DNA of 64,000 nucleotides from an uncultured delta proteobacterium (lineage in GTDB: Bacteria > Desulfobacterota > Syntrophia > Syntrophales > Smithellaceae), in assembly GCA_963753975.1 (NCBI GenBank), contig CAVWEH010000001.1, forward strand, positions 288,001 to 352,000. The letters are read 5' to 3'. Both the position numbers and the translations under genes were made by a program. Positions 10,147 to 48,589 of the stretch are shown here, piece after piece; position 1 is the stretch's first letter, and each line of letters opens with the position of its first letter. The notes beneath the pieces were generated by a model. That model saw nothing but the letters and a program-made list of their open reading frames with translations, was not told the DNA's origin and searched no databases.

Positions 10147-10662
10147 CAATGAGACCCAAATTTCCAAAACGTAGTGAGTCCCAGATTTTAGAAGCGAAGC
10201 GCATAACCTAAAGGTCATCTACGACTGAAATCTGTTAGACGAACTATCCCGCAAAGCGGTGGAAGTGCATAACCTGAAGGCCACTGCCGCTGAAGTTTAC
10301 TGGACGTAATGAGACTCAAACTTTAAAAGCGAAGCGTATTAAAGTTTGTTAGTCGAATTATCCAATAGCTAAAGGCTATTGGAAATTATCCCCGAAGCGA
10401 AGCGTAGCGGGATGAGGAGACCAGTAAGCGCAGCTTATTGGGATCAGTACCTTGGTGTAGGTCGAATTAATGAAACTCAGGTATTGCAAGCGAAGTGCAG
10501 CAATATCTGCTAGCTGTAATGAGACTAAAACTTCAAAAGCAAATAACCTAAAGGTCACTATAGGCGCATTGAAGTTTTTTAGCCGAATTATCCAATAGCC
10601 AAAGGCTATTGGAAATTATCCCGCGCCAGTCGGGGTTGATCCTACCAGAGGTGGAATTGATC
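10147..10662 (+). repeat. Cluster of nested GA-mismatch hairpin units (starts 10147, 10172, 10307, 10468, 10517) with three micro-insertions
   Basis: Repeated TARTGA-NNC...AAGCGAAGYGCA...GAAYTATCC units with self-complementary 10 bp arms. Confidence 0.92.
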
Positions 10663-15278: not shown

Positions 15279-15928
15279 TATTTCCAGCCCAAAAATCCGA
15301 AAGCGAGTATATTCATCAAAACCGGCACGGCGTAAATGATTCCCACGGTGATAATTTTAGTTTTCAGCTTTTTTAAGCTGATCACTAAAATCGCCCAGCA
15401 GAAGAATTGGAAGTAGCCGATAAGAAAGATCAGCCAGATACCCTTAAAAGATAAGTTCCAGAAAGGGTATTCCCAGACGAGAAGTCCGCCGATATTCAAA
15501 AGGCATTCGATGAATACGCAAAAAGCGCTGTAACCGATAGCCCAAAACCATTTTTCCGGCAGGCCGAGAATCTTCTCTTTTTTACTTTTCGAAAGAGTGT
15601 GATAGTAGATAATTCCCAGAAGCAGAAACATGAACATTATTTCGATGTTCCAACCCACCAGCGTCCGGAGCGCCGTATCTCCCGGAGTTGTCCAGAGAGC
15701 GGAACGTTGGGTAAGATACATCACCCAGCTGTTCCATGTTTCATTGAAGAAATCCGCGCCGAAAATCGCAAGACCCGCGAAGACGGCATCCCAGTTTTTA
15801 GATTGGCGCGCCTCCTTTATTTCCCGAGTGTAAACATAAAAGACAAAAGCTAAAAGAGGGATTATATACCACTTAAGCATGGTAAGATCTCTCAGACCGT
15901 TTAAGGCTTGTTGGGTTGCTGGCGTCAT
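15275..15928 (-). CDS. Hypothetical membrane protein
   Basis: 217 aa, about 6 hydrophobic segments, GGAGG RBS. Confidence 0.8.
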   Translation of the reverse strand: MTPATQQALNGLRDLTMLKWYIIPLLAFVFYVYTREIKEARQSKNWDAVFAGLAIFGADFFNETWNSWVMYLTQRSALWTTPGDTALRTLVGWNIEIMFMFLLLGIIYYHTLSKSKKEKILGLPEKWFWAIGYSAFCVFIECLLNIGGLLVWEYPFWNLSFKGIWLIFLIGYFQFFCWAILVISLKKLKTKIITVGIIYAVPVLMNILAFGFLGWKY

Positions 15929-15971
15929 ATAACCTCCTTCTCGATGTTTTGGTTACAAAATGTCTGCTGGT

Positions 15972-16078
15972 GAATTCGGTAGCGAGCTCATTCCCCGTTG
16001 CTTGCTGCGGGGGTAAGCGAGCGCATACTGTCCTTAAGAATCGAAGATTATCCGCAACTTGCCGCGGAGAGCTTCAAT
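15972..16078 (-). mobile_element. Two-hairpin non-autonomous element (second copy at 38219-38301)
   Basis: Reverse complement ATTGAAGCTCTCCGCGGCAAGTTGCGGATAATCTTCGATTCTTAAG...GCTCGCTACCGAATTC matches the 38219 copy at both ends. Confidence 0.7.
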
Positions 16079-16202
16079 CTTCTTATCAGGCAATAAAATA
16101 TTTATACAGTTGAATTATACTATAACGTCATATAAACAAAAAGACAAAAATTTGTTAATTTCAGCGCTGGATTTTTATAGAGAATGTGTTTAAATAAGCT
16201 TG

Positions 16203-16307
16203 CCCCGTTAGAAATGTTGAAATTATTATATACCTGCTATGATTTGTCAGCCGCGACTTTGATTAAAAAATAAAGATTAGCCCCAAGTTATTACATTTCT
16301 AACGGGG
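16203..16307. mobile_element. 105 bp MITE-like element with CCCCGTTAGA terminal inverted repeats
   Basis: Perfect 15 bp TIR CCCCGTTAGAAATGT/ACATTTCTAACGGGG. Confidence 0.85.
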
Positions 16308-16324
16308 TGAAGGAGAAATGAACT

Positions 16325-17326
16325 TTGATTCTTACCGGTAAATTGAAAATTGCCCTGCTGATTTTGCTTACCATTTTTATAGTCGGCACTGTCGGTTTTC
16401 ATTTTATTGAAAAATGGAGTCTTGTCGACTCTTTTTACGTCACAATTACTACTTTATCGACTGTCGGCTACGGTGATTTCGTACCGCAAACGGTGGAAGG
16501 TAAATTTTTTGCAGTTTTTATAATTATTTTCGGCGTAGGCACGATGCTTTATTCATTCGGCCTGATTTCGGAAACAGTAATCGAGGGCCGCTTGCGCGGT
16601 TTATTGGGGAGGGGTAAATTGGAAAAAATAATCGAAAAAATGAATAATCATTATATCATTTGCGGTTGCGGCCGTATCGGTCTTTTGATTTGCCGTGAAT
16701 TGACCGCGGAAAAAGTGTCTTGCCTCGTTATCGATAACAATCCCGAGGTGATTCAGAAGGCACACGATGAAGGATTTATTTACTGCAAAGGGGATGCGAC
16801 CCAGGATAAAACTTTAATCGAAGCGGGAATCAAGCGGGCCAAGGGTATCGTGTGCGTGCTCCCGTCGGATGCAGAAAATCTCTACGTTATCTTGACTGCG
16901 AAGGAACTCAACCATAATATATATATAATGTCGCGTTCCGAAGACGAAGCATCGGAGCACAGGCTTGTCCGGGCGGGAGCCGATAGAGTTATTTCTCCCT
17001 ATAAGCTGGGAGGGGTCAGGATGGCCATGGCCATTTTACGTCCGGCCATGCTGGATTTTATCGAAATAACGAGCCGCAGACAAAGTCTGGAGCTGCGCAT
17101 GGAAGAAATTCCCATTACGCCGGGCTCACAGTTTATCGGCAAGTCGCTGGAAAATTCGGGAATCCGTCAGGACTACGGGCTGATTATTATCACGGTAAAG
17201 AAAGATTCGGGAAAGATGATTTTCAATCCGCAGGCCGACTATGTTATTGCCGAAGGCGACAGATTGATAGCGATGGGTGAGGATGAGAATGTAAAGAAGC
17301 TGATCAAAGCATCTTTACCCCGTTAA
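16325..17326 (+). CDS. Potassium channel protein with RCK (TrkA-N/TrkA-C) domains
   Basis: TTLSTVGYGD selectivity filter, HYIICGCGRIG Rossmann fold, FNP C-terminal RCK-C. Confidence 0.93.
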   Translation: MILTGKLKIALLILLTIFIVGTVGFHFIEKWSLVDSFYVTITTLSTVGYGDFVPQTVEGKFFAVFIIIFGVGTMLYSFGLISETVIEGRLRGLLGRGKLEKIIEKMNNHYIICGCGRIGLLICRELTAEKVSCLVIDNNPEVIQKAHDEGFIYCKGDATQDKTLIEAGIKRAKGIVCVLPSDAENLYVILTAKELNHNIYIMSRSEDEASEHRLVRAGADRVISPYKLGGVRMAMAILRPAMLDFIEITSRRQSLELRMEEIPITPGSQFIGKSLENSGIRQDYGLIIITVKKDSGKMIFNPQADYVIAEGDRLIAMGEDENVKKLIKASLPR

Positions 17327-17415
17327 AAATTAAATGGCTTATGCTGCACCATGTATATTTTTTGAGAAGTACTAATAACAGGAAAGTTTATAGTATAAAA
17401 TGATTTCTAACGGGG
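17318..17415. mobile_element. 98 bp CCCCGTTAGA-family element
   Basis: CCCCGTTAAAAAT...ATTTCTAACGGGG; overlaps the K+ channel stop codon and the next gene's RBS. Confidence 0.8.
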
Positions 17416-17423
17416 AGGAAAAT

Positions 17424-18125
17424 ATGAAAAATAATTATTTGTTTATTCTGAAGAGAAGCGCGCTGCTTGTTTTGTTGATAGCTTTCAGTTTGGGTATATT
17501 AGATTGTGGACCTGTTCTCAGCATTTACAGTGTCAATATGCAGTATGACGCGGCCAAGGCAGTTATTCCGGCAGATTTGAAGGCCGGAGAAAAAATGCGC
17601 GACGCCGTAATTACCATCGCGGAATTTACTGATACACGCCAGGTGGATGATAAAAAAATACTCGGCCGGGTGACGGAGAGAGACGGCGTGAAAGCTCTTG
17701 TATTTCCGAAGTATGTTATACCCACGAAAGCCGTTGCTTACGGCATCAAAGATTATTTGACAAAAGCGGGTTATAAGGTTGCCGATAAGATTGCCCAGTG
17801 GGATCTAAAAGAAGAAACGATCCCGAAGGGATCCGGCAAAGTTCTGATAGGCGGGAACATTGAAGAGCTCGAAGCATCCTGCGAGCGCGGTGTTTTTGCG
17901 AACTCTTATAAGATCAGTTTGAAGCTGACCATTGTTTTTGCGGATCCGGCTAAAGGCAAGATATTATATAAAAGCAAAGTGGAGAGCTTGCTTTCCCGGG
18001 ATGATGTTTCCTTTTCCGAACAGTGGTTCGGAGATCAGGCAAGTAGTGTTCTGGGCGACGCCATTGAAAAAGTATTTCAGGAAAAGGCTGTAGCGCAAAA
18101 GATAAAAGAAGCTTTATCCCGGTAG
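17424..18125 (+). CDS. Hypothetical exported protein / probable lipoprotein
   Basis: Hydrophobic signal ending in Cys; ATG at 17424 after GGGGAGG. Confidence 0.7.
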   Translation: MKNNYLFILKRSALLVLLIAFSLGILDCGPVLSIYSVNMQYDAAKAVIPADLKAGEKMRDAVITIAEFTDTRQVDDKKILGRVTERDGVKALVFPKYVIPTKAVAYGIKDYLTKAGYKVADKIAQWDLKEETIPKGSGKVLIGGNIEELEASCERGVFANSYKISLKLTIVFADPAKGKILYKSKVESLLSRDDVSFSEQWFGDQASSVLGDAIEKVFQEKAVAQKIKEALSR

Positions 18126-18130
18126 ATTAA

Positions 18131-18232
18131 CCCCGTTAGAGATTAATGAACGTACGGGGATTATACTCAGCAAATTTTTTGGGATGATAAATCGTGAGGG
18201 CTATACAATTTCGGCAGTAATTTCTAACGGGG
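18131..18232. mobile_element. 102 bp CCCCGTTAGA-family element
   Basis: CCCCGTTAGAGATTA...TAATTTCTAACGGGG. Confidence 0.85.
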
Positions 18233-18245
18233 TGAACGAGGTTCA

Positions 18246-18337
18246 CCCCGTTTAGAAATTAGATAACTTAAAGCCTCGGAACCTCGAAAATCTCCTCAGG
18301 AGTTATGTTTCTATGAATAGAAAAATTTCTAACGGGG
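18246..18337 (+). mobile_element. 92 bp CCCCGTTAGA-family element carrying AGGAG and ATG
   Basis: TIRs; aligns end to end with 21457-21547. Confidence 0.88.
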
Positions 18338-20388
18338 AAAATATCCCCCGCTACAATCACGCAAACTTTAACGCGGCCTTAGCCCCGAAGGGCAGGTTCC
18401 GCATTCTGCTGCCGCTGATCCTGATGATGATCTTCCTCTCCCCCTTCCCTGTGGTAGCCCAAGACCTTACTTGCAGCGACCTTCCCAAACTGATGGAAGC
18501 ATTCTACGCCAAACACTACGTGATGAAGAGTACCACCCCGGAGATCAGGATGCACGCTGTGGACCAGATGGTCAAGCGCCTTGATCCCTCTAAAACGCTG
18601 CTGTACGAGTCTGATTTGAAAAAGCTCAAACCGCTTCTCGCGGACCTGTTTGAAGGCGCGGGAAAAGGCAACTGCGCCTCGCTCCAGTCGGTTTATGACC
18701 TGCTTGTTGCCCGGGTACGGGAGAATGAAACCATCGTCAAAAAGATTCTGGGGCCGGACTTCCGTCTGGACATGATGACGGAGCTGAATATCAACGTGGA
18801 CAAACGCCCCTATCTGAAGACAATGACAGAAAAGCAGGGGCTTCTGAAAAAGATCGTGCAATTCCAGATCGAAAACTCACTGCTCGCCGGCATTGACCTG
18901 GCAACAGCTAAAAAGAAGCAGATACACCGCTACGAGTTACAGACGATGCGGGTGGTTGAGCAAAATCCCGCCGAGCTCATTACAACCTCCGCCGAGGCCT
19001 TCGCCCTGGCCCTGGATCCGCACACCAGTTACCTGCCCCCCAAAGAGCTTGAGGATCTCCAGATTCAGATGAATCTTTCTCTGGAGGGGATCGGGGCTAT
19101 TCTGAGCAGCGACACCGGCTTTACCATTATTGAAGAATTGGTTCCCGGGGGCGCCGCTGAGAAAACCGGTCTGTTGAAGCCAAAGGATAAAATCATCGCC
19201 GTGGCTCAGGAAGGGGAAATGCCCGTTGACGTCATCGACATGGATCTGCGCGACGTTATCAGCATGATCCGCGGCAAGAAAGGCACACGAGTAACCCTAA
19301 CGATCCTGCGGCAGGGGAAGCGCAAGGAGCGCTTTGATGTAACCATCACGCGCGACAAGATCGACGTGAAGGAGCAGGAGGCGAAGATCACCTACGAGAT
19401 TCGGAAAGTGAGCGGAAGGCAGTATCGCTTCGGTGTAATCGATCTTCCTTCCTTTTACGGCGGCGAAAAGGGCGGCAAATCCAGTTACGAAGACGTGAAA
19501 AAACTTCTTGCCGAGGCAAAAAGACAGCGAGTGGACGGCATCGTGCTGAACCTGTCGCGCAACGGCGGTGGGCTGCTCGAAGAGGCGGTGCGCCTTACCG
19601 GCCTTTTTATTGGTAATGGTGGAATAGTAGCGGTCAAGGACAGCCAGGGGCGGGAGACGATTCTTGCCAATGGTTCTGCCGCATCGGGAAAGGACGGTGA
19701 CGAACGCCGCATCAATGCGGCCCCTGCGGAGGATCCACGGGCACTCTACCTGGGCCCCCTTGCCGTTCTGACGAGCCGCCTCAGTGCGTCGGCAAGCGAA
19801 ATAGTCGCGGGCGCTCTGCAAGATTACCACCGTGCGGTGATCGTCGGCTCGGACCATACCTTCGGCAAGGGTTCCGTGCAGGCGCTAATGCCGCTGCCCT
19901 GGGAGCTTGGCGCAATGAAGGTCACAACGGCGTTATACTTCCTGCCCGGCGGCAAATCGACGCAGAAGACGGGTGTGATGGCGGATGTCAGGCTGCCCGG
20001 CTGGTTTGTATTAGAAGATATCGGTGAAGCGGCGCTGGACTATCCGCTGCCGGCTCAGGCGATCGAGCCCTTCCTGGGCGTGCGGGAGAAAGCTGCGCCG
20101 CATTGGAAGTCTGTTGACGAGCCACTGATCGCAAGGCTTTCGTCCAAATCGCAGAGCCGCGTGGCGAAAAACGCAAAGTTTGCCAAAATCATCAAAGACA
20201 ACAAAGAAGCCGCGGAAAAGAAGGGCATCATCCAGCTTGATGATTTACGCAAGACGATAAAGGACGAAGACGCAGACATTGAGAATGAAACGCGTTCCGA
20301 ACAAAGGCAAAAGGCCCGGGAGCAGTATGCGCCTTTTGTAAACGAGAGCGTCAACATCCTGCTCGACGAAGTAGTGAGACTCAACTGA
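18313..20388 (+). CDS. prc: Tail-specific (carboxy-terminal processing) protease, S41 family
   Basis: LDPHTSYL, LEGIGA, PDZ, NGGGLL, SASASEIVAGALQDY, TFGKGSVQ; true start uncertain. Confidence 0.92.
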   Translation: MNRKISNGENIPRYNHANFNAALAPKGRFRILLPLILMMIFLSPFPVVAQDLTCSDLPKLMEAFYAKHYVMKSTTPEIRMHAVDQMVKRLDPSKTLLYESDLKKLKPLLADLFEGAGKGNCASLQSVYDLLVARVRENETIVKKILGPDFRLDMMTELNINVDKRPYLKTMTEKQGLLKKIVQFQIENSLLAGIDLATAKKKQIHRYELQTMRVVEQNPAELITTSAEAFALALDPHTSYLPPKELEDLQIQMNLSLEGIGAILSSDTGFTIIEELVPGGAAEKTGLLKPKDKIIAVAQEGEMPVDVIDMDLRDVISMIRGKKGTRVTLTILRQGKRKERFDVTITRDKIDVKEQEAKITYEIRKVSGRQYRFGVIDLPSFYGGEKGGKSSYEDVKKLLAEAKRQRVDGIVLNLSRNGGGLLEEAVRLTGLFIGNGGIVAVKDSQGRETILANGSAASGKDGDERRINAAPAEDPRALYLGPLAVLTSRLSASASEIVAGALQDYHRAVIVGSDHTFGKGSVQALMPLPWELGAMKVTTALYFLPGGKSTQKTGVMADVRLPGWFVLEDIGEAALDYPLPAQAIEPFLGVREKAAPHWKSVDEPLIARLSSKSQSRVAKNAKFAKIIKDNKEAAEKKGIIQLDDLRKTIKDEDADIENETRSEQRQKAREQYAPFVNESVNILLDEVVRLN

Positions 20389-20636
20389 AAACGAGCACAG
20401 CAAAGGTTGAAGTGTTAGTCGAACTAATGAAACTCCAATTTCGAAAGCGAAGCACATAGAAATTGGATAGTTGAATTATCCCCGCCATAGGCGGAGGATA
20501 TCGAAGATATCTGTGATATCCCCGAAGCAAAGCGTAGTGGGGTAGTGAGTCCCAAGTTTTAGAAGCGTAGCGCACTGAAATTTGTTGGACGAACTATCCC
20601 CGAAGCAAAGCGTAGTGGGGTAATGACACTCGCTAA
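20372..20636 (+). repeat. Cluster of GA-mismatch hairpin units (20372, 20425, 20543, partial 20621)
   Basis: Same unit architecture; 28 bp direct repeat TATCCCCGAAGCAAAGCGTAGTGGGGTA at 20517 and 20595. Confidence 0.9.
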
Positions 20637-20812
20637 AACAGCACCTTTTGGCGTTGTATATCTGTTAGGCAATTGTTCCCATAAAAGGTACATTTAGTGA
20701 ATAATAAGACAATGCGTCCTGGGGGATATTCAAAAACAAATAATTGTCCGAAAATTTAGTTGGTGCACAAAATGCACATTGCAAATAATAATAAGCTTGG
20801 GGATAGCAGGAC

Positions 20813-21195
20813 GTGACTGAAAAAAATATCATAATGCAAGATACAAAAGGGCAAGTGGTTTTATACAAGAACCGGCTGGAAGTCCGTTTAGAAAAGGATA
20901 CTGTCTGGTTAAGCCTGAGTCAATTGGTAGATTTATTCGAACGTGACAAGTCCGTTATCTCAAGACATTTACTCAATATATTTAAATCAAAGGAGTTAGA
21001 CAAAGCATCAACTGTTGCATATTTTGCAACAGTTCAAAAAGAGGGTGGTCGAATTATTGAACGGAATATCGAATATTTCAACTTAGATGCAATCATCTCT
21101 GTTGGCTATCGTGTTAATTCAATTCGAGGCACTCAATTCCGCATTTGGGCAACAAATGTTTTGCGGCAGCATCTGGTTGCCGGTTATACCATTTA
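20813..21195 (+). pseudogene. RhuM-family protein N-terminal part, truncated at a CCCCGTTAGA end
   Basis: TVWLS..Q..DLF.RDKSVISRH, NLDAIISVGYRVNS.RGTQFRIWA..VL..HL..GYTI; family-like sequence stops at the repeat. Confidence 0.8.
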
Positions 21196-21216
21196 CCCCG
21201 TTAGAGGCGAATATTT

Positions 21217-21465
21217 ATGCATTATGTGTACGTGCTTAAGAGCATAAAAGACAAAAAAATGTATACGGGGTGCACAGAGGATTTACGGAAGCGTTTTCGT
21301 GAGCATAATATTGGGAAGGTTAATTCCACAAAAGGGCGAGGGCCTTTTGAATTAATATACTATGAGGCCTCGTCAGATAAAACAGATGCTTTTGCCCGAG
21401 AGAAATATCTGAAATCAGGGATGGGGAAAGATCATGTTCTATGTAAAGGGGATTTACCCCGTTAG
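21217..21465 (+). CDS. Stand-alone GIY-YIG nuclease
   Basis: YVYVLKS...YTGCTEDL.KR..EHN.G...STK.R.PFELIYYEA.....A..RE.YLKSG.G. Confidence 0.9.
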   Translation: MHYVYVLKSIKDKKMYTGCTEDLRKRFREHNIGKVNSTKGRGPFELIYYEASSDKTDAFAREKYLKSGMGKDHVLCKGDLPR

Positions 21466-21547
21466 AAATTGCCTAACTTAAAGCTCCAGAACTTAGAAAA
21501 CCTCCTCAGGAGTTAGTTTTATATGAATAAAAAGATTTCTAACGGGG
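21457..21547 (+). mobile_element. 91 bp CCCCGTTAGA-family element followed by a second right end (to 21565)
   Basis: CCCCGTTAGAAAT...ATTTCTAACGGGG then AAAAAATCTCTAACGGGA. Confidence 0.88.
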
Positions 21548-22245
21548 AAAAAATCTCTAACGGGATAAAAAGCTGGCCCAAGGACGACCGGCCGAGGGAG
21601 AAACTGCTTAAGCGCGGCGCAGGCACTTTGAGCAACTCCGAGCTTCTGGCGATACTTCTGCGCACCGGAGTTAAAGGCAACAGCGCCATTGATCTCGCGA
21701 GAAAAATACTTAGTAAATTCGATACATTTCGCAATATGAGCCACTCTGATATCCGCGATTGGAAAGAATTTAAAGGTTTAGGCCCCGCCAAAATTGCACA
21801 AATAAAAGCCGCGTTGGAAATCGGCAGGCGTTTCCGTGAAGATGAAGTAGTGAGTGTCAAGCAAAAAATTGCCACGGCCGGGGATGTCGTCGATATCATT
21901 ATGCCGCAAATGCGCGACCTCAAGACGGAGGTCTTTAAAGTTGTCTACCTCAACAGCAACAACGGAATAATTGATATTGCCGATGCGGCTCAAGGCACTG
22001 TAAATCAGGCCGCGCCGATTGTCCGGGAAATTATTCATACGGCATTACAAAAATTTGCCGCCTCTATTATTTGTGTTCACAATCACCCCAGCGCGAATAT
22101 TGCACCCAGCCCGGAAGACAAAAAAATAACGGCGGAGTTATCAGCCGCATGCAAGCTGATGGGAATCAGAATGCTGGATCATATCATCATCGGCGACGGT
22201 AGCTACTTTAGTTTTACAGATGAGGGAATGCTTGAATCAATATGA
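21523..22245 (+). CDS. radC: RadC (JAB domain) protein
   Basis: RPREKLL..GA..LS..ELLAILLRTG, GLGPAK, HNHPS...PS.ED, LDHIIIG. Confidence 0.95.
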   Translation: MNKKISNGEKISNGIKSWPKDDRPREKLLKRGAGTLSNSELLAILLRTGVKGNSAIDLARKILSKFDTFRNMSHSDIRDWKEFKGLGPAKIAQIKAALEIGRRFREDEVVSVKQKIATAGDVVDIIMPQMRDLKTEVFKVVYLNSNNGIIDIADAAQGTVNQAAPIVREIIHTALQKFAASIICVHNHPSANIAPSPEDKKITAELSAACKLMGIRMLDHIIIGDGSYFSFTDEGMLESI

Positions 22246-25037
22246 TTAAGAGCGAAGCTCAAACCAGAAAAGAGATTATTGATAAACGGCTCTTGCAGGT
22301 TGGCTGGAATGTGAAGAATCCTCTTCACGCCACGGAGGAGTTAAGTATTTGGATTGGTTTGCAGGAAGGCGTGCATGAGCCGCAGACTATTTATCAGGGG
22401 CAGCTTTTTGTAGATTATGCACTTCTTGGTGAAGATGGCACGCCGGTTGCTGTTGTAGAAGCGAAAAAGACTTCAACTGAGGCGGAGCGAGGCAAAGAGC
22501 AGGCGCGTAATTATGCTGAGAAAATTCAGAAAAATCACGGCGGGCCTATACCCTTCGTTCTTTACACAAACGGCTACGACATTTTCTTCTGGGATACAGA
22601 TCGTTACCCACCCCGCAAGGTTTACGGATTTCCATCAAAAGCCGACTTGGAGCGCATCCAATTTTTGCGTGATAACAGCAGACCTCTATCCAGTGAATTA
22701 ATCAATACTATAATAGCTGGAAGGCCATACCAAATAGAGGCAATTCGTTCTGTTTTGGAAGCTCTGGAAAAGAAACGGCGTAAATTTCTCTTGGTTATGG
22801 CAACTGGCACAGGCAAAACACGCACCTGCATGGCGCTGCTTGATGTTCTAATGCGCACTAATTGGGTTCAGCGCGTTTTATTTCTTGTGGATCGCATCGC
22901 TTTACAGGAGCAAGCACTTGATACATTCAAGGAGTATCTACCTAATGCGCCTATATGGCCAAAGCAAGGTGAAAAAGAATTTGTGACAGATCGGCGTGTC
23001 TATGTATCAACTTATCCGACAATGCTCAATATCATTGAACAGGAAAATTGTCCGCTGACAGCTCATTTTTTCGATCTGATTGTTGCTGATGAAAGTCATC
23101 GTTCCATTTATAACGTTTATAAAAATATTTTCGAGTATTTTGATTCCGTACAGCTAGGGCTTACGGCTACGCCGAAGGATCATGTTGACCACAATACTTT
23201 CTCGCTTTTTGAATGCGACAACGGATTGCCGACATTTGCTTATTCGTATGAAGAAGCAATCAATAACATCCCGGCTTATTTATGTGATTTTGAAGTATTG
23301 AAAATAAGAACAAAATTTCAACAAGAAGGCATTAATAGTAAGACAATTGCGGAACACGACAGAAAGAAACTATTAATTGAAGGTCGTGATCCGGATGAAA
23401 TCAGCTTCGAAGGAACAGAGCTGGAGATAAAAGTATCCAACAAAGGCACTAATGCGCTCATTGTCCGCGAGTTTATGGAAGAGTGTATTAAAGACGCAGA
23501 TGGCGTGCTGCCCGGTAAAACCATCTTTTTTGCGTTATCTAAAAAGCATGCATATCGGCTCTGTGAAGTATTTAACGCTCTATATCCCGAATATAAAGGA
23601 CAGCTCGCCGAAGTAATCATTTCCGACGTAAAGGGAGTGCACGGCAAAGGAGGCATTCTTGACCGTTTCAAAAACAACGACATGCCACGTATTGCTATAA
23701 GCGTTGACATGCTAGATACCGGCATTGATGTGCGGGAAGTTGTAAATCTGGTTTTTGCCAAGCCTGTTTTCTCCTACACAAAATTTTGGCAGATGATTGG
23801 CAGAGGTACCCGTGTTCTTGATCCTGAAAAGATCAAACCCTGGTGTCCATCCAAAGATAAATTTCTGATCATGGACTGCTGGGATAATTTTGAATATTTC
23901 AAAATGAATCCCAAAGGCAAAGAGCAGAAGCCTACCCGGCCTCTTCCCGTAAGATTGTTTGAAGCCAGGTTGGACAAACTGCAAGCGGCGCTGGAAATGC
24001 AGGATGAAACAATATCTCAAAAGACCGTACAGCAAATCAAAAAAGATATTGATTTACTTCCAGCCAACTCCGTTATTGTTCTTGATGGGAAAGAATACAT
24101 CGATTATGCGCAAGACGTATCTTTCTTTAGTAAAATTACACCGGAAGCAGTCGGATTTCTGCGGCAAAATGTTGCGCCAATTATGCGGGCAAAATCTGAT
24201 GCTGATTTTAAAGCCATGCATTTTGAATTGAATGTTGTAGAGGTATCGACAGCTCATCTTGTAAAAGATAAAGAACGTTTTGAGGTATTGAAAGAAGGTT
24301 TAGTCGAAATCATTAGTGAACTTCCGCTTTCGGTAAATATTGCTGCTAAACAACAAGCGTATATTGAAAAAGTGACCGGTAATAATTTTTGGCACACCCT
24401 GGTAGATAATGATTTTGATGAAATGGTGGTCAGGCTTGCCCCGTTGATGAAGTTCAGGGAGCAGGACAAAATAATTGAAGTTAAAACGGATTTAACCGAT
24501 CTTCTAACTGTTAAAGAATATATAGAGTTTGGGCCAGAACATGAACGGCTGACGATTAATAAATATCGTCAGAAGGTTGAAGAATTAATCAGGGAAATGG
24601 TTAAAACCAATAAATCTCTGCAAAAAATAATTGCTGGTGAAGATTTAACCAATCAAGAGATAGAAGAACTTGCAACAATCCTGCGCGACAAATATCCCAA
24701 TGTCACGGAATTAATACTACAAGAGATTTATGATAACCGTAGTGCCAAATTTATTCAGTTTATCAAGCATGTGCTTGGGCTGGAACCATTGGAGACCTTT
24801 ACGGAGAAAGTATCGTTTGCCTTTGATGAATTTATCCGGGCGCACAACAACTATGGACAACAACAAATTCAATTTTTGCAGACATTAAAAACATTCGTTC
24901 TACAAAAAGGCAAAATTGAGAAAAGCGATTTAGTCCATGCGCCATTTACGCAACTACACCCACAGGGGATTCGCGGTGTATTTAAACCTGGCGAAATTGA
25001 CGAAATTATAAACCTGACGCAGAAGCTTGCGGCATAA
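22242..25037 (+). CDS. hsdR: Type I restriction enzyme R subunit
   Basis: DY.L....VVEAKK nuclease motif, MATGTGKT, DESHRS, LTATP, QMIGRGTR. Confidence 0.94.
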   Translation: MIKSEAQTRKEIIDKRLLQVGWNVKNPLHATEELSIWIGLQEGVHEPQTIYQGQLFVDYALLGEDGTPVAVVEAKKTSTEAERGKEQARNYAEKIQKNHGGPIPFVLYTNGYDIFFWDTDRYPPRKVYGFPSKADLERIQFLRDNSRPLSSELINTIIAGRPYQIEAIRSVLEALEKKRRKFLLVMATGTGKTRTCMALLDVLMRTNWVQRVLFLVDRIALQEQALDTFKEYLPNAPIWPKQGEKEFVTDRRVYVSTYPTMLNIIEQENCPLTAHFFDLIVADESHRSIYNVYKNIFEYFDSVQLGLTATPKDHVDHNTFSLFECDNGLPTFAYSYEEAINNIPAYLCDFEVLKIRTKFQQEGINSKTIAEHDRKKLLIEGRDPDEISFEGTELEIKVSNKGTNALIVREFMEECIKDADGVLPGKTIFFALSKKHAYRLCEVFNALYPEYKGQLAEVIISDVKGVHGKGGILDRFKNNDMPRIAISVDMLDTGIDVREVVNLVFAKPVFSYTKFWQMIGRGTRVLDPEKIKPWCPSKDKFLIMDCWDNFEYFKMNPKGKEQKPTRPLPVRLFEARLDKLQAALEMQDETISQKTVQQIKKDIDLLPANSVIVLDGKEYIDYAQDVSFFSKITPEAVGFLRQNVAPIMRAKSDADFKAMHFELNVVEVSTAHLVKDKERFEVLKEGLVEIISELPLSVNIAAKQQAYIEKVTGNNFWHTLVDNDFDEMVVRLAPLMKFREQDKIIEVKTDLTDLLTVKEYIEFGPEHERLTINKYRQKVEELIREMVKTNKSLQKIIAGEDLTNQEIEELATILRDKYPNVTELILQEIYDNRSAKFIQFIKHVLGLEPLETFTEKVSFAFDEFIRAHNNYGQQQIQFLQTLKTFVLQKGKIEKSDLVHAPFTQLHPQGIRGVFKPGEIDEIINLTQKLAA

Positions 25038-25061
25038 AGTAAATAGTAAGGAATAGTTGTT

Positions 25062-26612
25062 ATGTTGATGCCCGAAATGAAATCTCTGATCAATGCTCTA
25101 TGGGACAAATTCTGGAGTGGCGGCATATCTAATCCGCTTACCGCAATTGAGCAAATATCTTATCTGCTATTCATGCGCCGTCTGGATGAAATGGATACAA
25201 AACTAGTAAATGACGCCGAGTTTACGGGCGATAATTATAACTCCATTTTCAAGGGGAAGTTTAAACTGCCATCGGGTGAAACCATTGATAAAAAAACTTT
25301 ACGCTGGAGTCACTTCAAACAGATGGAAGGCGGTGAAATGCTCCGTCATGTGCAAATCAATGTATTTCCATTCATTAAGCAGCTTAATGGTAGTAATACA
25401 ACCTTCACGAAACATATGGAAGACGCTGTGTTTATTATACCTAAAGCTTCGCTTCTAGTGGAAGCAGTCATCATTATCGACCGGCTATATGATGAAATTG
25501 AAAAACAGATGCAGTCTGGTCAAATTTTTCATGACACGCAGGGCGATATGTATGAATTTTTGCTTTCTGAAATTGCTACTTCCGGTAAAAACGGACAGTT
25601 TCGCACGCCACGCCACATCATTGCGCTCATGTGCGAGCTTGTTGACCCGAGGATTCCAGATTTGGTTTGTGATCCTGCCTGCGGTACCAGCGGTTTTTTG
25701 CTCGGCGCTTATCAACACATCCTTACCCAACATACGAGTAAGGAGAATCTTTTTATCGATGAAAATGGTTTTACCCGCGGTAGCCTGGGTGACAAGCTTA
25801 CTGACAAAAAGCTCTGGAAGCATTTGAAAGAGACAACTTTTTACGGGTATGATTTTGACTCAACCATGGTGCGTATCGGCCTTATGAACATGATTCTGCA
25901 TGGCATTACCAATCCCAATATTAAGCGGAAAGACACGCTTTCCAAAAAATATAACGAAGACAATAAATACAACTGTATCTTTGCCAACCCGCCATTCAAA
26001 GGCAGCATTGACAAAGGGGATATCAACGAAACCCTATCACTTGCGACTACCAAGACAGAACTTTTATTTGTCAATCGCATTATTAATTCTTTGCGCATCG
26101 GCGGCCGTGCAGCGGTGATTGTGCCGGATGGCGTGCTCTTTGGTTCAAGCAACGCGCATAAAGATTTGCGCAAAATGCTTATTGAAAAGTGCGAACTTCA
26201 GGGCGTAGTATCCATGCCCAGTGGTGTGTTCAAACCCTATGCCGGAGTGAGCACAGCGATTATTGTTTTTGTAAAAGGTGGCACAACAGAAAAAGTTTGG
26301 TTCTACGACATGCAGACCGACGGATTTTCACTGGATGACAAAAGAGAGAAAATCGAGGCAAATGATCTGCCGGATATTGTAAAGAATTGGAAAGTTCGCA
26401 ACAAAAGCAAAAGCGATAACCGCACAGCCAAACACTTCTTTGTGCCTGTAAAAGAAATCATTGATAACGGTTTTGACCTTTCCATCAATCGCTATAAAGA
26501 AACCATATATATTACAACTGAGTATGAGAAGCCGAAAGTGATTTTGGGAAAGATTGAAGCTATTGAGAAGGAAATAATGGATGGGATCAAAGAATTAAAG
26601 AAGATAATGTAA
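25062..26612 (+). CDS. hsdM: Type I R-M N6-adenine methyltransferase
   Basis: GQFRTPRHI, DPACGTSGFL, ANPPF, VPDGVLFG. Confidence 0.96.
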   Translation: MLMPEMKSLINALWDKFWSGGISNPLTAIEQISYLLFMRRLDEMDTKLVNDAEFTGDNYNSIFKGKFKLPSGETIDKKTLRWSHFKQMEGGEMLRHVQINVFPFIKQLNGSNTTFTKHMEDAVFIIPKASLLVEAVIIIDRLYDEIEKQMQSGQIFHDTQGDMYEFLLSEIATSGKNGQFRTPRHIIALMCELVDPRIPDLVCDPACGTSGFLLGAYQHILTQHTSKENLFIDENGFTRGSLGDKLTDKKLWKHLKETTFYGYDFDSTMVRIGLMNMILHGITNPNIKRKDTLSKKYNEDNKYNCIFANPPFKGSIDKGDINETLSLATTKTELLFVNRIINSLRIGGRAAVIVPDGVLFGSSNAHKDLRKMLIEKCELQGVVSMPSGVFKPYAGVSTAIIVFVKGGTTEKVWFYDMQTDGFSLDDKREKIEANDLPDIVKNWKVRNKSKSDNRTAKHFFVPVKEIIDNGFDLSINRYKETIYITTEYEKPKVILGKIEAIEKEIMDGIKELKKIM

Positions 26613-26613
26613 G

Positions 26614-27771
26614 ATGCGACTAGTGAACATTACTGAAGCAGTTGAAAATACAAATAGCCGTGTTAAACCATTTACTGGCCAGCGCCAATATATGGCTACC
26701 GGCGATTTATCTAAAAACAAAATTAATGAAATGATGGCAGTTGACTATGAAACAAAACCAAGTCGTGCTGATTTACTTGTAAATGCTGGCCAAATTATTT
26801 TGGCGCGCATGAAAGCCACAAATAAAGTTCTTTTAATTGATCAATCCAGTAAAGATTTTATTGTTTCCACTGGGTTTATAACACTTACGCCAAAGAAAGG
26901 GTTCAATTCTGGTTATCTATCTCATTATTTTAAGTCTGGTTTTTTTCAATCACAAAAAGATAAATATTGTACTGGTGCAACTCAAAAAGCAATAAACAAT
27001 ACTTCCTTAAAAAAAATAAACGTTCCTTATTGTTCTATAGATGAACAACAAAAAATAGCTGCTATTCTCGACCAAGCCGATGCCCTGCGGAAAAAGCGCC
27101 AAGAGTCGCTCCGACTTCTGGATGCGCACTTGAAGTCGATGTTTCTGGAGATGTTCAAAAAAGGAACCCTTAATTGGAAAATCTGTAAAATAAAAGATAT
27201 TGCTGAGAATAAAAAAGGAAGCATGAGGACGGGCCCGTTTGGAAGCAGTCTGCTACATAGTGAATTTGTAGAAGAAGGCATAGCTGTACTCGGCATTGAC
27301 AATGCTGTGGAGAATAAATTCTTATGGAAAGAAAGAAGATATATTACTAAAGAGAAGTATTCTCAGCTGAAACAATACACCGTTCGTCCTGGTGATATTA
27401 TTATTACTATCATGGGAACATTAGGTAGATCCGCAGTGATTCCAGAAAATATTCCTCTTTCTATAAATACAAAGCATTTAGCTTGTATTACTTTAAGTAG
27501 AGAAATTGCTAATCCATATTTTATTAATTACACATTCCAATCTGATCCGGACGTAATTCGTCAGCTAAGTGGGAAGAAACGTGGCGCTATTATGGATGGA
27601 TTAAATCTGACGATAATTAAAGAATTAGACATAAAGTTGCCTCCTTTAGCATTGCAGGAAAAGTTTGTTACGATATTGAAAAAGGTCGAATTTCAAAAAG
27701 ATCAAATGAATAAATCCCTCACCGAAATTGACACTCTCTTCAACGCTCTTTCACAACGGTATTTCGGGTGA
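26614..27771 (+). CDS. hsdS: Type I R-M specificity subunit
   Basis: EQQKIAAILDQAD.LRKKR spacer helix, TGPFGS.L, LPPL.LQEKF; AT-rich. Confidence 0.93.
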   Translation: MRLVNITEAVENTNSRVKPFTGQRQYMATGDLSKNKINEMMAVDYETKPSRADLLVNAGQIILARMKATNKVLLIDQSSKDFIVSTGFITLTPKKGFNSGYLSHYFKSGFFQSQKDKYCTGATQKAINNTSLKKINVPYCSIDEQQKIAAILDQADALRKKRQESLRLLDAHLKSMFLEMFKKGTLNWKICKIKDIAENKKGSMRTGPFGSSLLHSEFVEEGIAVLGIDNAVENKFLWKERRYITKEKYSQLKQYTVRPGDIIITIMGTLGRSAVIPENIPLSINTKHLACITLSREIANPYFINYTFQSDPDVIRQLSGKKRGAIMDGLNLTIIKELDIKLPPLALQEKFVTILKKVEFQKDQMNKSLTEIDTLFNALSQRYFG

Positions 27772-27890
27772 AGATAAAGATGGTTGGTGAATTTATTTCA
27801 AAGAGATCATGGCAACCATCAACGGCGATAGGAATTTATAGTGGATAATTAGCTGCGACATTCAAACAAACGAGTAAATAGGATTAGCGC

Positions 27891-28718
27891 GTGCAACGGC
27901 TTAATGTGAGACAATCTCAGATTAGAGAATGTATTGAAAAATCGCTCTTCGCGATTGATCAAACACCGCATTTCCATAAAGGGGAAATCCTTCTTTTACA
28001 ACTCGTTAAAACTGAAGCTCAAGGTTTAGGCAAACTGCGCGCGCGAATTGAATTTGCGCTCGTCTATGACCGCTACGAAGCTGACTATGCAGGCGAGATA
28101 AGTCGTCAACATTGGCCGCAGGCGGGAAAGACATGGAAATATATTCTTGTTTGTTCCGATACAATACCCACTATTCCATTTAGTCTGGAAGAGCTGCAAC
28201 TTTCAAATAAGTATGCAGGCCAAACCAATCCTCTGGCAATTAGTCAAGAAGACGAAGTTGTAATATCTCCTTATGTGTGGGGTAAATTAACCGGCTACGA
28301 ACTCAGGGATACGTTTGGCCCGAGTTTGGTTAAAGAAACACTTGGTAATTATGACGTGATTACACATCCCAAAAAGCAAAAAAAGATTATTGTTCCTGAA
28401 CACGAAGAATTCTATCGCGATCCCTTTTTATCCGAATCTTTAAAAGCGCTTTATGATCACAGATGCCAGGTTTGCGGAATGAATTTTAGAATTAAGTACG
28501 AAGAGCCATTTGCAGAAACTCATCATATTGATTCTTTGAGTAGCGGAGGATTGGATATCAGCAAAAATATTATTGTCACCTGCCCGAATCATCATCGAAT
28601 AATCCACAAAACTAGCGCTGAATTTGATCGCGCAAAACTTTTATACAAATATCCAAATGGATTAGAAGAGCGGTTAGTATTAGCTGATCACTTCGAACAA
28701 AAATCATTTTGGGCGTAG
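27891..28718 (+). CDS. HNH endonuclease with uncharacterised N-terminal domain
   Basis: LK.LY..RCQVCG...ETHHI..LS.GG.D...NI...CPNHHR.IH. Confidence 0.85.
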   Translation: MQRLNVRQSQIRECIEKSLFAIDQTPHFHKGEILLLQLVKTEAQGLGKLRARIEFALVYDRYEADYAGEISRQHWPQAGKTWKYILVCSDTIPTIPFSLEELQLSNKYAGQTNPLAISQEDEVVISPYVWGKLTGYELRDTFGPSLVKETLGNYDVITHPKKQKKIIVPEHEEFYRDPFLSESLKALYDHRCQVCGMNFRIKYEEPFAETHHIDSLSSGGLDISKNIIVTCPNHHRIIHKTSAEFDRAKLLYKYPNGLEERLVLADHFEQKSFWA

Positions 28719-28834
28719 GCGCGAAAAAAACACAAAAAACGTTATTAATCAATATATTCGACATATTGCCGTATATTGACAGGCCTGGCAGGAAATCAAA
28801 TTAGCGGCAATTTATTTGACTTATTGCCGATAAT

Positions 28835-29590
28835 TTGTATACTAGCGCAAGGAGGCTTAGTAAAAAAACGGATAATTTATTTAAACATTTTGAAAATCGG
28901 GAATCGTTTACCACAAATGAAATTTTCGGTTTTTTCTCTCAAACACAGCCCAATATTAAAAAAGCAACCGTAAATTGGCGGATTTACAATCTTGTCCAAA
29001 AGGGTTTATTAAGAAAAATCGGTCGCGGAATATATTCTTTAGGCAAAGAAAATTGTTTCTCTCCAATTCTTGACAAGAAACAAAAAAATATTTTCGTCCT
29101 GATTAAAAAGCAATTCCCTCTTATCACCTTTTGCTGTTGGCATACTGCTTTGTTAAAAGAATTTTTTCAGCATGTATCAGTGTATGATTTTCTACTGGTC
29201 GAAGTGGAACGCGAAGCAATAGATTCCGTTTTTCTTTCTATCAAAGAGACTAACAAAGACACTTTCAAAGAACCGTCGCGCGATGTGATGGAAAATTATG
29301 TATTCAATGGCAAAGACGCTATAATTGTTAAATCCCTGATCAGCGAAGCTCCTCTTCAGGATATTGATAATATAATTGTGCCGACTATAGAAAAGATTCT
29401 TGTTGATTTATACGCAGATCGTGAAATTTTCTTTTTCCTGCAAGGCAATGAAATGCTGAGCATCTTCAAAAGCGCGCTGGGAAAATATACGGTTAATACG
29501 GACAGGCTTTTGCGTTACGCAAAAAGAAGGAATAAGAGAGAAGAACTGCAAAAAATATTAGCCCAAATAAACGGCAAAAATAGGGAATAG
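28835..29590 (+). CDS. AbiEi-like antitoxin / winged-helix regulator (start uncertain)
   Basis: TVNWRIY.LVQKG...KIGRGIY wHTH; PTIEKILVD; LLRYAKRR; upstream of an AbiEii-like gene. Confidence 0.78.
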   Translation: MYTSARRLSKKTDNLFKHFENRESFTTNEIFGFFSQTQPNIKKATVNWRIYNLVQKGLLRKIGRGIYSLGKENCFSPILDKKQKNIFVLIKKQFPLITFCCWHTALLKEFFQHVSVYDFLLVEVEREAIDSVFLSIKETNKDTFKEPSRDVMENYVFNGKDAIIVKSLISEAPLQDIDNIIVPTIEKILVDLYADREIFFFLQGNEMLSIFKSALGKYTVNTDRLLRYAKRRNKREELQKILAQINGKNRE

Positions 29591-29605
29591 TGCCAAAAAT
29601 TTGAT

Positions 29606-30679
29606 ATGATTTCAAAAGACGCATTAAAACCGGAATGGATAAAGAAGGTATCTGCCGAAAACCGCAAGGCAGATAAGATTCTTGTTGAAAAAGTCATCCG
29701 CGCTTTGCTTCTTCTGGAAGGTCTTGCGGAAACCGGCTTGCCCTTTGTTTTTAAAGGCGGCACTTCCGTAATGCTGCTTCAGAAAATTCCCCGAAGATTT
29801 TCCATTGACATTGATATAATCGTACCGGAGAAGAAAAACTTTGAAGCGCTTTTTGCAAAATTCATTAAAGAGAAAAGCTTCACCAGATTTGAGTTTCAGA
29901 AAAGAGATTCGTCTTCAGAAATCAATAAACTCCACTACAAGTTTTTTTATACTCCTGCACATCAAAAGAATATTGCCGAAGACAATATCATGCTCGATAT
30001 TCTTATAGAATCATCAAAATACCAAAACGTTATTTCCCGAGACATTGATTTGTCGTTTGTCAAACAGGACGGATCACCTGCTCAGGTAAAAATTCCCAGC
30101 AAAGAAGATATTCTGGGCGATAAACTGACCGCCTTTGCGCCAAACACTACGGGAATTCCCTACCAAAAGAGCGGCTTTAGTATGGCCATGGAGATTATAA
30201 AACAATTATACGATATAGGGAATCTGTTCGAAGATATCAGCGATATAAAAGTGGTTGCCGAAACATTTAAAAATATCGCACAAACGGAAATGAAATACCG
30301 CGGACTTACGAAAGATGTAAAAATTGTATTGGATGATATTTTAGCCACAGCGCTTTGCCTCGCCACCAGGGGTAAGTCAGGCAAAGGTGACTTTGCGGCC
30401 CTGCAAAACGGTATATCGCAGACCAGAGCTTATATTTTCTCCGAAAGTTACCACATAGAAAAAGCCATTGTTCATGCGGCGCGCGCGGCGTATCTGACAA
30501 AACTCATTGATACCGGCGCCAATAAATTTGTCCGTTTTGAAAATGCCCAACAAATACTTGATTGGCAAATCGAAGCGCCGTTGGACACAAAGCTTAACAA
30601 ACTCAAGAAGAGCAACCCCGAGGCATTTTTCTATTGGTATCAGTTTTATTTGATAAATAAACGGGGCGACACAATTTAG
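29606..30679 (+). CDS. AbiEii/AbiGii-family nucleotidyltransferase toxin
   Basis: FVFKGGTS......RRFSIDIDI, DKL.AF, KQLYD. Confidence 0.88.
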   Translation: MISKDALKPEWIKKVSAENRKADKILVEKVIRALLLLEGLAETGLPFVFKGGTSVMLLQKIPRRFSIDIDIIVPEKKNFEALFAKFIKEKSFTRFEFQKRDSSSEINKLHYKFFYTPAHQKNIAEDNIMLDILIESSKYQNVISRDIDLSFVKQDGSPAQVKIPSKEDILGDKLTAFAPNTTGIPYQKSGFSMAMEIIKQLYDIGNLFEDISDIKVVAETFKNIAQTEMKYRGLTKDVKIVLDDILATALCLATRGKSGKGDFAALQNGISQTRAYIFSESYHIEKAIVHAARAAYLTKLIDTGANKFVRFENAQQILDWQIEAPLDTKLNKLKKSNPEAFFYWYQFYLINKRGDTI

Positions 30680-34594: not shown

Positions 34595-34733
34595 AAGATT
34601 CGGCAATATTCGGGGGTTGATGCAATTAAATTAATAGCAAGGGAAATCCCCTTCGATCCCTTTTTCACCCTAAAGAGTACGCGAAAAAAGGGGAAGTAAA
34701 AGGCTGCTCAAAATCCCCAGCGATCCGGCTTTT

Positions 34734-47088: not shown

Positions 47089-48589
<1,501 letters not shown>

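Follow-up and report, generated by a model that had tools for sequence, protein, structure and literature searches.

A tiny inverted-repeat element enclosing a minimal GIY-YIG nuclease gene as its candidate mobility enzyme, and its decayed copy in a Smithellaceae genome

The DNA considered here, hereafter the window, is a stretch of 64,000 nucleotides (nt) from an uncultured delta proteobacterium of the Smithellaceae, and its feature of interest is a short open reading frame (ORF) for a GIY-YIG nuclease that lies between inverted ends at positions 21196-21565. We consider it somewhat probable (roughly 55%) that this segment is a decayed, chimeric copy of a tiny selfish inverted-repeat element mobilised by its own nuclease. 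Across its relatives, a minimal nuclease gene is found between arms that pair with each other, together with gene-less partners, 4-bp duplications, sites at operon junctions and unrelated contexts across phyla; it is from these features that we infer the nuclease to be the mobility enzyme of the elements. The family seems to represent a type of tiny inverted-repeat element not described before, as no account of mini GIY-YIG elements bounded by inverted repeats was found in the literature and a literature search by motif string returned only unrelated primers.

The nuclease gene and its pairing arms

A scan of a genome collection confirmed 497 relatives of the nuclease gene, the best 80 of which were analysed with 10-kb flanks (loci L001 onwards). 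All 80 loci come from metagenome or single-cell bins, and the source genome of the window is not included among them (best match 88%). By record title, 41 of the 80 belong to the candidate phyla radiation (CPR)/Patescibacteria and 12 are of Thermodesulfobacteriota type, with Smithellaceae being the closest (80-88%), while the others are assigned to Omnitrophota (5), Planctomycetota (5), Bdellovibrionales (4), 'Gammaproteobacteria' (4), Elusimicrobiota (2) and Nitrospirota (1) or are unclassified (6). At the protein level, 2844 relatives at E <= 0.001 were obtained among 2848 candidates of a protein collection, and a profile search recovered 3020 representative clusters at E <= 1e-10, a number that rises to 14284 at E <= 0.001. 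The protein relatives listed are mostly 86 residues long, with about 90% query coverage, and end in ...GMGKRYLKNRLKRFLSLTG, the aligned C-termini of the homologues reading ...FLSLTG. Phage and plasmid records gave one weak match each (38% and 42% identity), neither of them a member of the clade.

That homologues of the nuclease gene are flanked by CCCCGTTAGA/TCTAACGGGG ends, as anticipated by an earlier sequence-only reading of the window, holds for 70 of 79 loci, in which both ends are in register, (T/C)CCCGTTAGAG standing before an 86-codon ORF and CTCTAACGGG plus the stop at its end. In these 70 loci GTTA lies 6-29 nt ahead of codon 1, with TAAC at the 3' end of the ORF, and in 62 of them TAAC falls at +250 from codon 1. 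Most of the nine exceptions can be put down to nested insertions in an arm or at the 3' end, to a one-base variant or to decay. The intact form measures about 275-285 bp and is composed of a 13-nt left arm, (T/C)CCCGTTAGAGNN, a leader of 6-29 nt and the 86-codon ORF, whose near-invariant last codons, TCT CTA ACG GGN, are themselves the right arm, the stop codon lying outside the 13-nt core in the 4-nt flank. When codons were counted by position from codon 1 in 77 loci, rather than anchored on the motif, Leu84 was found to be CTA in 66 of 68 cases and Thr85 to be ACG in 68 of 69; the Leu codons 74, 78 and 82 use 5-6 different codons.

The two arms behave as the strands of a helix. Over 48 aligned elements, 17 pairs (columns 5-21 with 290-306) are 91.8% paired, compared with 31-49% in slid controls whose partners were moved by 1-3 columns, and eight of the 17 have changed on both sides (69 cells), a value that 0 of 500 shuffles attained. 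The innermost pair, whose right-hand base occupies the third place in a Leu codon, occurs as U-A (21), C-G (19) and A-U (8), and arm positions covary through three Watson-Crick types with 96-100% pairing. The frozen codons and the pairing of the arms thus indicate that the constraint acts on nucleotides and their complementarity. A known RNA family, ribozyme or intron was rejected as an explanation on the grounds that Rfam 15 has no match at the elements: a search of window positions 15500-22500 at E <= 1 gave no element match, one chance miRNA match aside, and 16 related loci returned only tRNA and tmRNA, located elsewhere.

Some loci depart from the common form. In L004, L005 and L007 a 27-nt mini-palindrome (TCCCGTA...TACGGGA plus TAAA) stands in frame just before the last four nuclease codons, and such variants, which include protein P0060, comprise 91-95 residues and end in ...SRTASLRDKSLTG. 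Three Patescibacteria-type loci, L044, L046 and L049, contain an element with an AGCCCG...CGGGCT arm variant. In L044 and L046 the element is followed by the ORF for the phenylalanyl-tRNA synthetase beta subunit; in L049 the closest ORF found downstream is on the opposite strand, and orthology is drawn from near-identical flanking sequence only. These three loci suggest that the element, its ORF intact, has long been inherited vertically.

Gene-less elements with the same ends

After de-duplication, and with the same criteria applied to the loci and the window, 44 small and 69 gene-size elements were counted. Elements that have gene-type ends and lack the gene span 28-180 bp, down to bare palindromes of 28-31 nt (L003 6536-6563, L012 and two in L024). 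By size, two classes are distinguished, below 200 bp (n=45) and 200-339 bp (n=73). A third class was not found, pairs above 340 bp being combinations of separate elements or AT-rich chance matches, and larger units with the same ends holding a transposase were rejected on this basis. Neither was any other class of gene found between such ends in 1.2 Mb.

The association between gene and repeat that had been suspected from the window is recovered at the family level, as genomic regions with the gene also contain gene-less elements that have its ends and are concentrated in its vicinity. Indeed, 23 small elements are present in 435 kb lying within 4 kb of the gene versus 3 in 465 kb at a distance of 4-10 kb, a density about ten times higher near the gene. 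The gene-type CCT inside the right arm, present in 41 of 65 genes, is retained in 8 of 40 small elements. In all folded small elements (11 sequences, single strand) a terminal stem is formed, with z-scores from -2.7 to -8.0.

In Smithellaceae, small elements carry an ATG 16 or 25 nt from the right end, with a reading frame that leaves the element through the arm (MISNG..., MNKKISNGE...). This ATG is the only in-frame start of an S41 peptidase, of RadC and of a lipoprotein (window 18313-18340 and 21523-21565; L003 3818 and 7715; L001 9409-9510).

A subfamily of 47-75 nt is recognised by its ends, CCCCGTTAGAAG...CTTCTAACGGGG, and by G+C-rich inner hairpins (DNA fold z -5.2 to -8.0). Its members are L007 9385-9449, L018 9283-9329, L022 9711-9781, L058 11340-11407, L064 3837-3902 and L070 14613-14683; no Rfam match was obtained for it, and the interiors of the L022 and L070 copies look like mutual reverse complements with compensating changes.

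Insertion signature and genomic sites

Perfect 4-nt direct repeats flank 40 of 112 elements, compared with 11.5 by permutation (maximum 21 in 2000), and the gene-bearing elements alone show them in 26 of 69 cases versus 9.6 expected. The repeated sequences are TGAA (21), TTTA (4), TGAG (4), TAAA (3), TCAA (2) and others. In three instances the insertion occurred into sequence of known prior state and left a clean duplication, namely CCTG in the conserved 3' end of the gene (L019), TAGA in the left arm of the gene (L042) and TTTA at a nested insertion (L012).

Neighbouring genes mostly run in the same direction as the nuclease gene, upstream in 61 of 68 loci and downstream in 52 of 64. For 22 of 64 loci the distance to the start of the downstream ORF is 0, ATGA combining the nuclease stop with the host start, and the upstream ORF ends 10 nt away or less in 29 of 68. 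In CPR-type loci the left flank is also ATGA(A/G), which preserves the upstream stop and whose ATG is often in frame with the nuclease; the nuclease's own ATG is absent from 10 of 53 intact frames, and an outer ATG in frame with it is found in L032, L039, L048, L060, L071, L074 and L077. The 50 downstream proteins scanned belong to unrelated families, and downstream genes include those for S41 peptidase, YchF, AbiEii, glycosyltransferases, Pth, PheT, FolD, AccD and Jag.

Comparison of orthologous sites reveals that their filling differs, although no truly empty site was found among the related genomes compared. L003, from a Smithellaceae bin, is syntenic with the window. At the S41 peptidase site it has an intact gene, versus two small elements in the window, and a gene-bearing element holds the position upstream of the peptidase in L003, L001 and L005 that in the window is occupied by a small element (E4, below). 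At the RadC site, which is orthologous, the gene is present in the window and small elements are present in L003 and L004; the right flanks of window and L003 are orthologous there, while the left flanks differ (RhuM versus other DNA). At a K+ channel site with both flanks conserved, an intact gene is found in L002, small elements in L001 and the window (E1, below), and a 107-bp remnant keeping the leader and first codons in L005.

In L010 (4791-5065 and 9702), a second right arm plus flank follows the 1420-aa Laminin_G_3 gene that comes after the element. A single Moranbacteria contig carries two copies, L021 and L026, whose identical flanks suggest a segmental duplication rather than transposition.

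The nuclease

The protein is a minimal, single-domain GIY-YIG protein of 86 residues resembling Slx1/UPF0213. The AlphaFold2 model of an intact member (pLDDT 92.8) places a C-terminal helix at residues 68-85 in intact relatives, and no DNA-binding domain beyond the 86-residue core is present in the modelled protein. The nearest solved structures are UPF0213 BH0048, followed by Slx1 entries and then by At-HIGLE and I-TevI, the Slx1 entries among the matches being described as processing branched and 5'-flap DNA. By sequence, 1zg2 (E 4e-11) and 1ywl (E 3e-4) are matched, and Foldseek likewise ranks 1zg2 first and Slx1 entries next, with TM of about 0.62-0.65 over the query. Similarity of both sequence and fold, and the lack of an auxiliary domain, place the protein with Slx1/UPF0213; the match to TIGR01453 is weak (E 2.2e-05, below its cut-off). 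In the part of PMC1564403 available, 1zg2 and 1ywl are put in the Slx1 family, of which prokaryotic members are the minimal form and are treated as vertically inherited, and the term 'inverted repeat' is not mentioned in that part. A distant Bacillales relative, from Radiobacillus (42% identical, n=1), lies between a tRNA methyltransferase gene and rsmI without an enclosing repeat. A GIY-YIG protein also figures among the genes predicted to have been transferred from Patescibacteria in the available part of PMC12455944.

The copy in the window

In the window, the left end CCCCGTTAGAG is located at 21196-21206, the ATG of the nuclease ORF follows at 21217, 21 nt further on, and the right-end sequence CTCTAACGGGA terminates at 21565; the two ends therefore enclose the GIY-YIG ORF as first described from the letters alone. 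The left arm proper, CCCCGTTAGAGGC (21196..21208, + strand), is preceded by the flank TTTA (21192-21195), and the last part of the outer element (21548..21568, +) consists of AAAAA, the right arm ATCTCTAACGGGA (21553-21565) and TAA. Between the arms there are 10 contiguous complementary bases (CCCGTTAGAG / CTCTAACGGG) and three mismatched positions, the outermost pair and the two innermost pairs.

The nuclease ORF of this copy comprises 82 codons (21217-21465). Codons 1-71 (21217..21429, +) are the part that matches the family, with a Pfam PF01541 hit at E 2.2e-16 (60.4 bits versus a cut-off of 22.6, profile positions 1-70 of 78), and residues 1-74 are 84-89% identical to the closest relatives. 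After K71 the alignment departs from the family, and the divergent tail DHVLCKGDL (21430..21456, +) is homologous to the interior of a small element and not to the gene. In L003 (7598-7757 and 6614-6715), alignment shows the left arm joined directly to ATGGGGAAA and then to the sequence of the window tail; the small element at the RadC site of L003, with the left arm and ATGGGGAAA in direct succession, has the same tail and the same nested 91-bp element. Residues 72-80 of the window protein thus belong to the small-element family.

The complete 91-bp element reported to be nested inside was likewise recovered. This gene-less element, E5 (21457..21547, +), has perfect 13-nt ends, CCCCGTTAGAAAT...ATTTCTAACGGGG, the left of which provides the TAG stop of the nuclease ORF (21463-21465). 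It is 83% identical to a copy at 18247-18345, its single-strand fold has a terminal stem (z -5.15), and a counterpart is nested at the orthologous place in L003. Without E5, ...L80 would be followed in frame by KKSLTG and a stop (21548-21568), which restores the 86 codons and the C-terminus of the homologues, so that the right end of the window copy doubles as coding sequence for the last residues of the family.

E5 also gives a Shine-Dalgarno-like GGAG and an ATG (21523) to the following RadC gene (21523..22245, +), whose sole upstream in-frame ATG lies inside it. The first 14 residues of RadC are encoded by element sequence, and the family matches begin after them, that to Pfam UPF0758_N at residue 15 and that to NCBIfam RadC at residue 25; the arrangement is the same in L003.

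To the left of the element, an N-terminal fragment of a RhuM-family gene (20813..21195, +) matches Pfam PF13310 (E 7.6e-21) at profile positions 1-62 of 252 only. The match corresponds to ORF residues 66-127, which means that homology ends at about nt 21193, immediately before the left end; the ORF continues into the left arm up to a stop at 21247, and the full-length RhuM domain was not found in the fragment beside the element. RhuM is therefore truncated exactly at the left end, as had been noted, but not by simple insertion, since RadC, and not the remainder of RhuM, follows the right end. Given that RadC stands there at an orthologous site (L003, L004), a deletion or recombination between two elements explains the junction better. 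In particular, a gene-bearing copy in RhuM would have recombined at the shared GATGGGGAAA with a small element upstream of RadC, an event that would have deleted the C-terminal helix of the nuclease together with the rest of RhuM.

The view that the window holds a candidate autonomous or cargo-carrying member of a family is therefore upheld for the architecture of the family and abandoned for this copy, which is decayed, chimeric and interrupted, carries sequence from a small-element interior after K71, and is not a plausible autonomous element; a complete GIY-YIG domain with its C-terminal helix was not found in it. The reported lack of a transposase or recombinase in the window stands, none being detected with Pfam among 59 ORFs of at least 100 aa (E <= 1e-6 for 54 ORFs and <= 0.01 for the rest).

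Downstream of RadC, a defence-type cluster (22242-30676) contains hsdR, hsdM and hsdS of a type I restriction-modification system, an ORF, DUF6577 and an AbiEii-family gene, and the truncated RhuM gene probably belonged to it.

How the elements might move

In the mechanism that we favour, the element would be moved by the nuclease that it encodes. This enzyme would recognise the stem of the paired ends, or the junction that they form, and cut at its base, as structure-specific nucleases of the Slx1 type do; the target would receive a 4-nt staggered cut, and repair or ligation by the host would then finish the transfer, gene-less copies being mobilised in trans by the same nuclease. At many sites the host stop/start overlap ATGA is rebuilt on both sides, so that transcription and translation of the element would proceed as part of an operon that stays unbroken.

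Several observations weigh against mobility driven by the nuclease. GIY-YIG nucleases act by hydrolysis and are not known to transfer or join DNA strands. A perfect 4-nt direct repeat is missing from 72 of the 112 elements, and both flanks share a T-N-N-A consensus that derives in part from stop and start codons. By blastn-short, a gene-like interior is present in only 2 of 40 small elements, so that most of them are not demonstrable deletion derivatives; their description as plain deletion derivatives was rejected and the claim narrowed to a subset. Recent movement was not seen, the two related small copies of the window being only 83% identical, and several sites are filled in all related genomes, a combination that fits long persistence as well as mobility. 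Mismatches in the arms are more often G.T than A.C (about 50 versus 18, summed), and this strand asymmetry, which is confounded by the stop codon, hints at pairing of the sense strand, without separating RNA from single-stranded DNA. Finally, the window copy itself is probably inactive, judging from its sequence, since Y73, N76 and R77, three residues that hardly vary or do not vary at all among 74 relatives, are missing from it.

Alternative explanations

An unlikely alternative is a spread of the homing type, in which the arms would be halves of a palindromic target and cut gene-less palindromes would be repaired from a gene-bearing copy via arm homology, the hairpins themselves spreading by other means. 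It would account for orthologous sites whose content, gene or gene-less element, differs from genome to genome, and for the existence of the minimal palindromes. At one site, moreover, interiors are unalignable while arms and flanks are conserved, suggesting replacement rather than drift, and 38 of the 40 small interiors are unrelated to the gene. GIY-YIG enzymes are also classic homing nucleases, the match of the present protein to TIGR01453 being as weak as stated above. Arm homology, however, extends over only 13-17 bp, and the protein has nothing beyond its core with which to bind DNA. Furthermore, the excess of 4-nt direct repeats extends to the gene-bearing elements themselves, and target duplications are also found on minimal palindromes and small elements, which argues that something inserts the whole unit.

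A passenger gene is a little less probable still. Here a miniature inverted-repeat family would be moved by a conventional transposase encoded elsewhere, and the GIY-YIG ORF would be cargo fixed in one lineage. DDE-type transposition is usually recognised by terminal inverted repeats plus a target duplication of small size, both of which the elements show; the unrelated interiors of most small elements agree with such a scheme, and the sampling covers gene neighbourhoods only, so that a distant transposase acting in trans would escape, a point that also counts against the nuclease as mobiliser. On the other hand, the right arm is built into the last ORF codons in phyla as distant from each other as Patescibacteria and Thermodesulfobacteriota, neither a third size class nor another type of ORF between the ends is seen in the 1.2 Mb, the 64-kb window has no transposase, and the covariation of the arms favours base pairing over a protein that reads two independent sites.

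It is highly improbable that nothing moves at all, that is, that an ordinary nuclease gene has an mRNA whose 5' and 3' parts are held together by a long-range stem (serving RNase III processing, stability or control of translation) amid unrelated regulatory or terminator-like hairpin repeats: the stem does enclose the ribosome-binding region and the stop codon, sense-strand G.T wobble exceeds A.C, and distant UPF0213 relatives are fixed housekeeping-type genes, as with the repeat-free Radiobacillus copy, but neighbours are unrelated in nearly every locus, target duplications include insertions into other copies, gene-less copies share the ends and the sub-terminal bases, many homologues lie on very short contigs, as repeats do, and protein identity of 59-88% across phyla implies horizontal spread.

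Relationship to known systems

The elements recall several known systems without coinciding with any of them. Repetitive extragenic palindromic (REP) sequences and their associated tyrosine transposase (RAYT) consist of a small Y1/HUH transposase-like gene flanked by inverted repeats that are also found gene-less, many times and intergenically. The likeness lies in a single small gene between inverted repeats, in gene-less copies that fold into hairpins and in the junctions of co-directional genes. RAYT, however, is an HUH/Y1 enzyme and each REP is palindromic, whereas the present gene encodes a GIY-YIG nuclease, its arms are singly non-palindromic with the stem formed between the two ends, and a 4-bp target duplication is present; neither a Y1 gene nor individually palindromic REPs were found here.

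With pairs of insertion sequences (IS) and miniature inverted-repeat transposable elements (MITEs), as well as with the Correia elements of Neisseria and the enterobacterial ERIC sequences, the family shares terminal inverted repeats, on gene-bearing and gene-less copies alike, a short target duplication of fixed length (4 bp, perfect in 40 and not perfect in 72 of 112 elements) and gene-less copies of about 100 bp. MITEs also insert intergenically and affect the expression of neighbours, and the present elements donate the start codons of RadC and the S41 peptidase. They differ in that no transposase of a known class (DDE, HUH, serine or tyrosine) is found, only a GIY-YIG ORF lying between the ends, and in that the arms covary as a helix.

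IS200/IS605 elements, like the palindrome-associated elements derived from them, are similarly very small, with hairpin-forming DNA, gene-less derivatives and a 4-nt boundary sequence that matters. Yet they possess sub-terminal hairpins at each end and a Y1 transposase and make no target duplication, while the present ends pair with each other and duplications are seen.

Homing endonuclease genes of the GIY-YIG type, whether free-standing or borne by introns (I-TevI, Seg), are selfish genes between host genes with common degenerate copies and a cycle of gain, decay and loss. In contrast to homing enzymes, which have a DNA-binding domain and one cognate allele, the present protein is an 86-residue core whose gene, enclosed by inverted repeats and duplications, occurs at dozens of sites that are unrelated to one another. 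No single cognate target was found, as neighbours are unrelated and flanks share only T-N-N-A.

Lastly, Slx1-like/UPF0213 proteins (COG2827, YazA/YhbQ-type) are of the same fold and sequence family, and the difference is one of setting: the Radiobacillus relative, the only one checked, lies among fixed neighbours without a repeat around it.

Between 16.2 and 21.6 kb of the window, successive genes are set apart by small elements, and an integron cassette array was considered and rejected in the absence of a tyrosine recombinase/integrase in the window. The attC sites of integrons were rejected as well, since arms are present on both sides of the ORF instead of only downstream of it, with core motifs arranged in the opposite order to the attC consensus.

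Other small elements and repeats in the window

The 10-mer of the ends, allowing at most one mismatch, occurs 13 times in the window versus 3.1 expected (shuffle maximum 8, with 0 of 100 reaching 13). Apart from E5, four gene-less elements were delineated. E1 (105 bp, 16203..16307) lies upstream of a TrkA-type K+ channel gene. E2 (98 bp, 17318..17415), of the same family as L001 9409-9510, has one change in its left arm, which creates the TAA stop of the upstream gene. E3 (102 bp, 18131..18232) has a fold z of -4.44. E4 (about 92 bp, 18246..18337, +), with an extra T in its left arm, supplies the ATG of the S41 peptidase ORF (18313). The interiors of the small elements of the window are unrelated, save for the pair at 18247 and 21457.

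A second, unrelated repeat family is present at 2918-3064, 10148-10622, 20424-20620, 40200-40290, 41081-41244 and 59394-59514. It consists of clustered short hairpin units, such as ...AATGAGAC, stem, AAGCGAAGCG loop, stem, CGAATTATCC..., which are intergenic and in both orientations, distant copies being up to 96-100% complementary; one cluster sits between the S41 peptidase gene and the RhuM fragment. Direct repeats of reiterated GGTCACTATAGG units at 34732-34797 and 35726-35802 flank a 145-aa ORF (35186-35620).

Two genes of the window are split. An FGGY-family sugar kinase gene (47412-48589, - strand) is broken into two neighbouring ORFs of different frame that between them cover profile parts 1-126 and 146-245 and the C-domain, which indicates a frameshifted gene or a sequencing error. 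An AcrB-type transporter (52171-55421) is divided into two overlapping ORFs (profile 2-582 and 631-1020), with a 78-nt tandem duplication, 91% identical, at its 3' end (55232-55387).

Implications

Many families of miniature repeats in bacteria have no known mobilising enzyme, and here ends that are conserved across phyla tie one such family to a tiny gene. We advance only tentatively the broader proposal that the intact form is the smallest autonomous DNA transposon (about 280 bp) and a new prokaryotic class, with an 86-residue GIY-YIG nuclease as its sole protein, a paired-end stem recognised by structure, 4-bp duplications, insertion at operon stop/start junctions that secures expression by the host operon, and mobilisation of mini-elements across CPR, Omnitrophota, Planctomycetota and Thermodesulfobacteriota. 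Such a candidate is, to our knowledge, far below any known insertion sequence in size. If the nuclease is indeed the mobility enzyme, GIY-YIG would join the short list of catalytic classes of prokaryotic transposases, a new lower size limit for an autonomous element would be set, and a compact, structure-guided DNA-cutting module would be at hand that is easily tested.

The elements may also account for the non-intron GIY-YIG insertions in CPR rRNA genes that are reported in the available part of PMC11270868. None of the 8 loci scanned on this lead holds rRNA.

For annotation, genes of the clade labelled 'GIY-YIG nuclease family protein' are element-derived, and so are odd N-terminal extensions of neighbouring proteins such as MNKKISNGE or MNPVRE. 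In the window itself, the elements now furnish the start codons of RadC and of an S41 peptidase.

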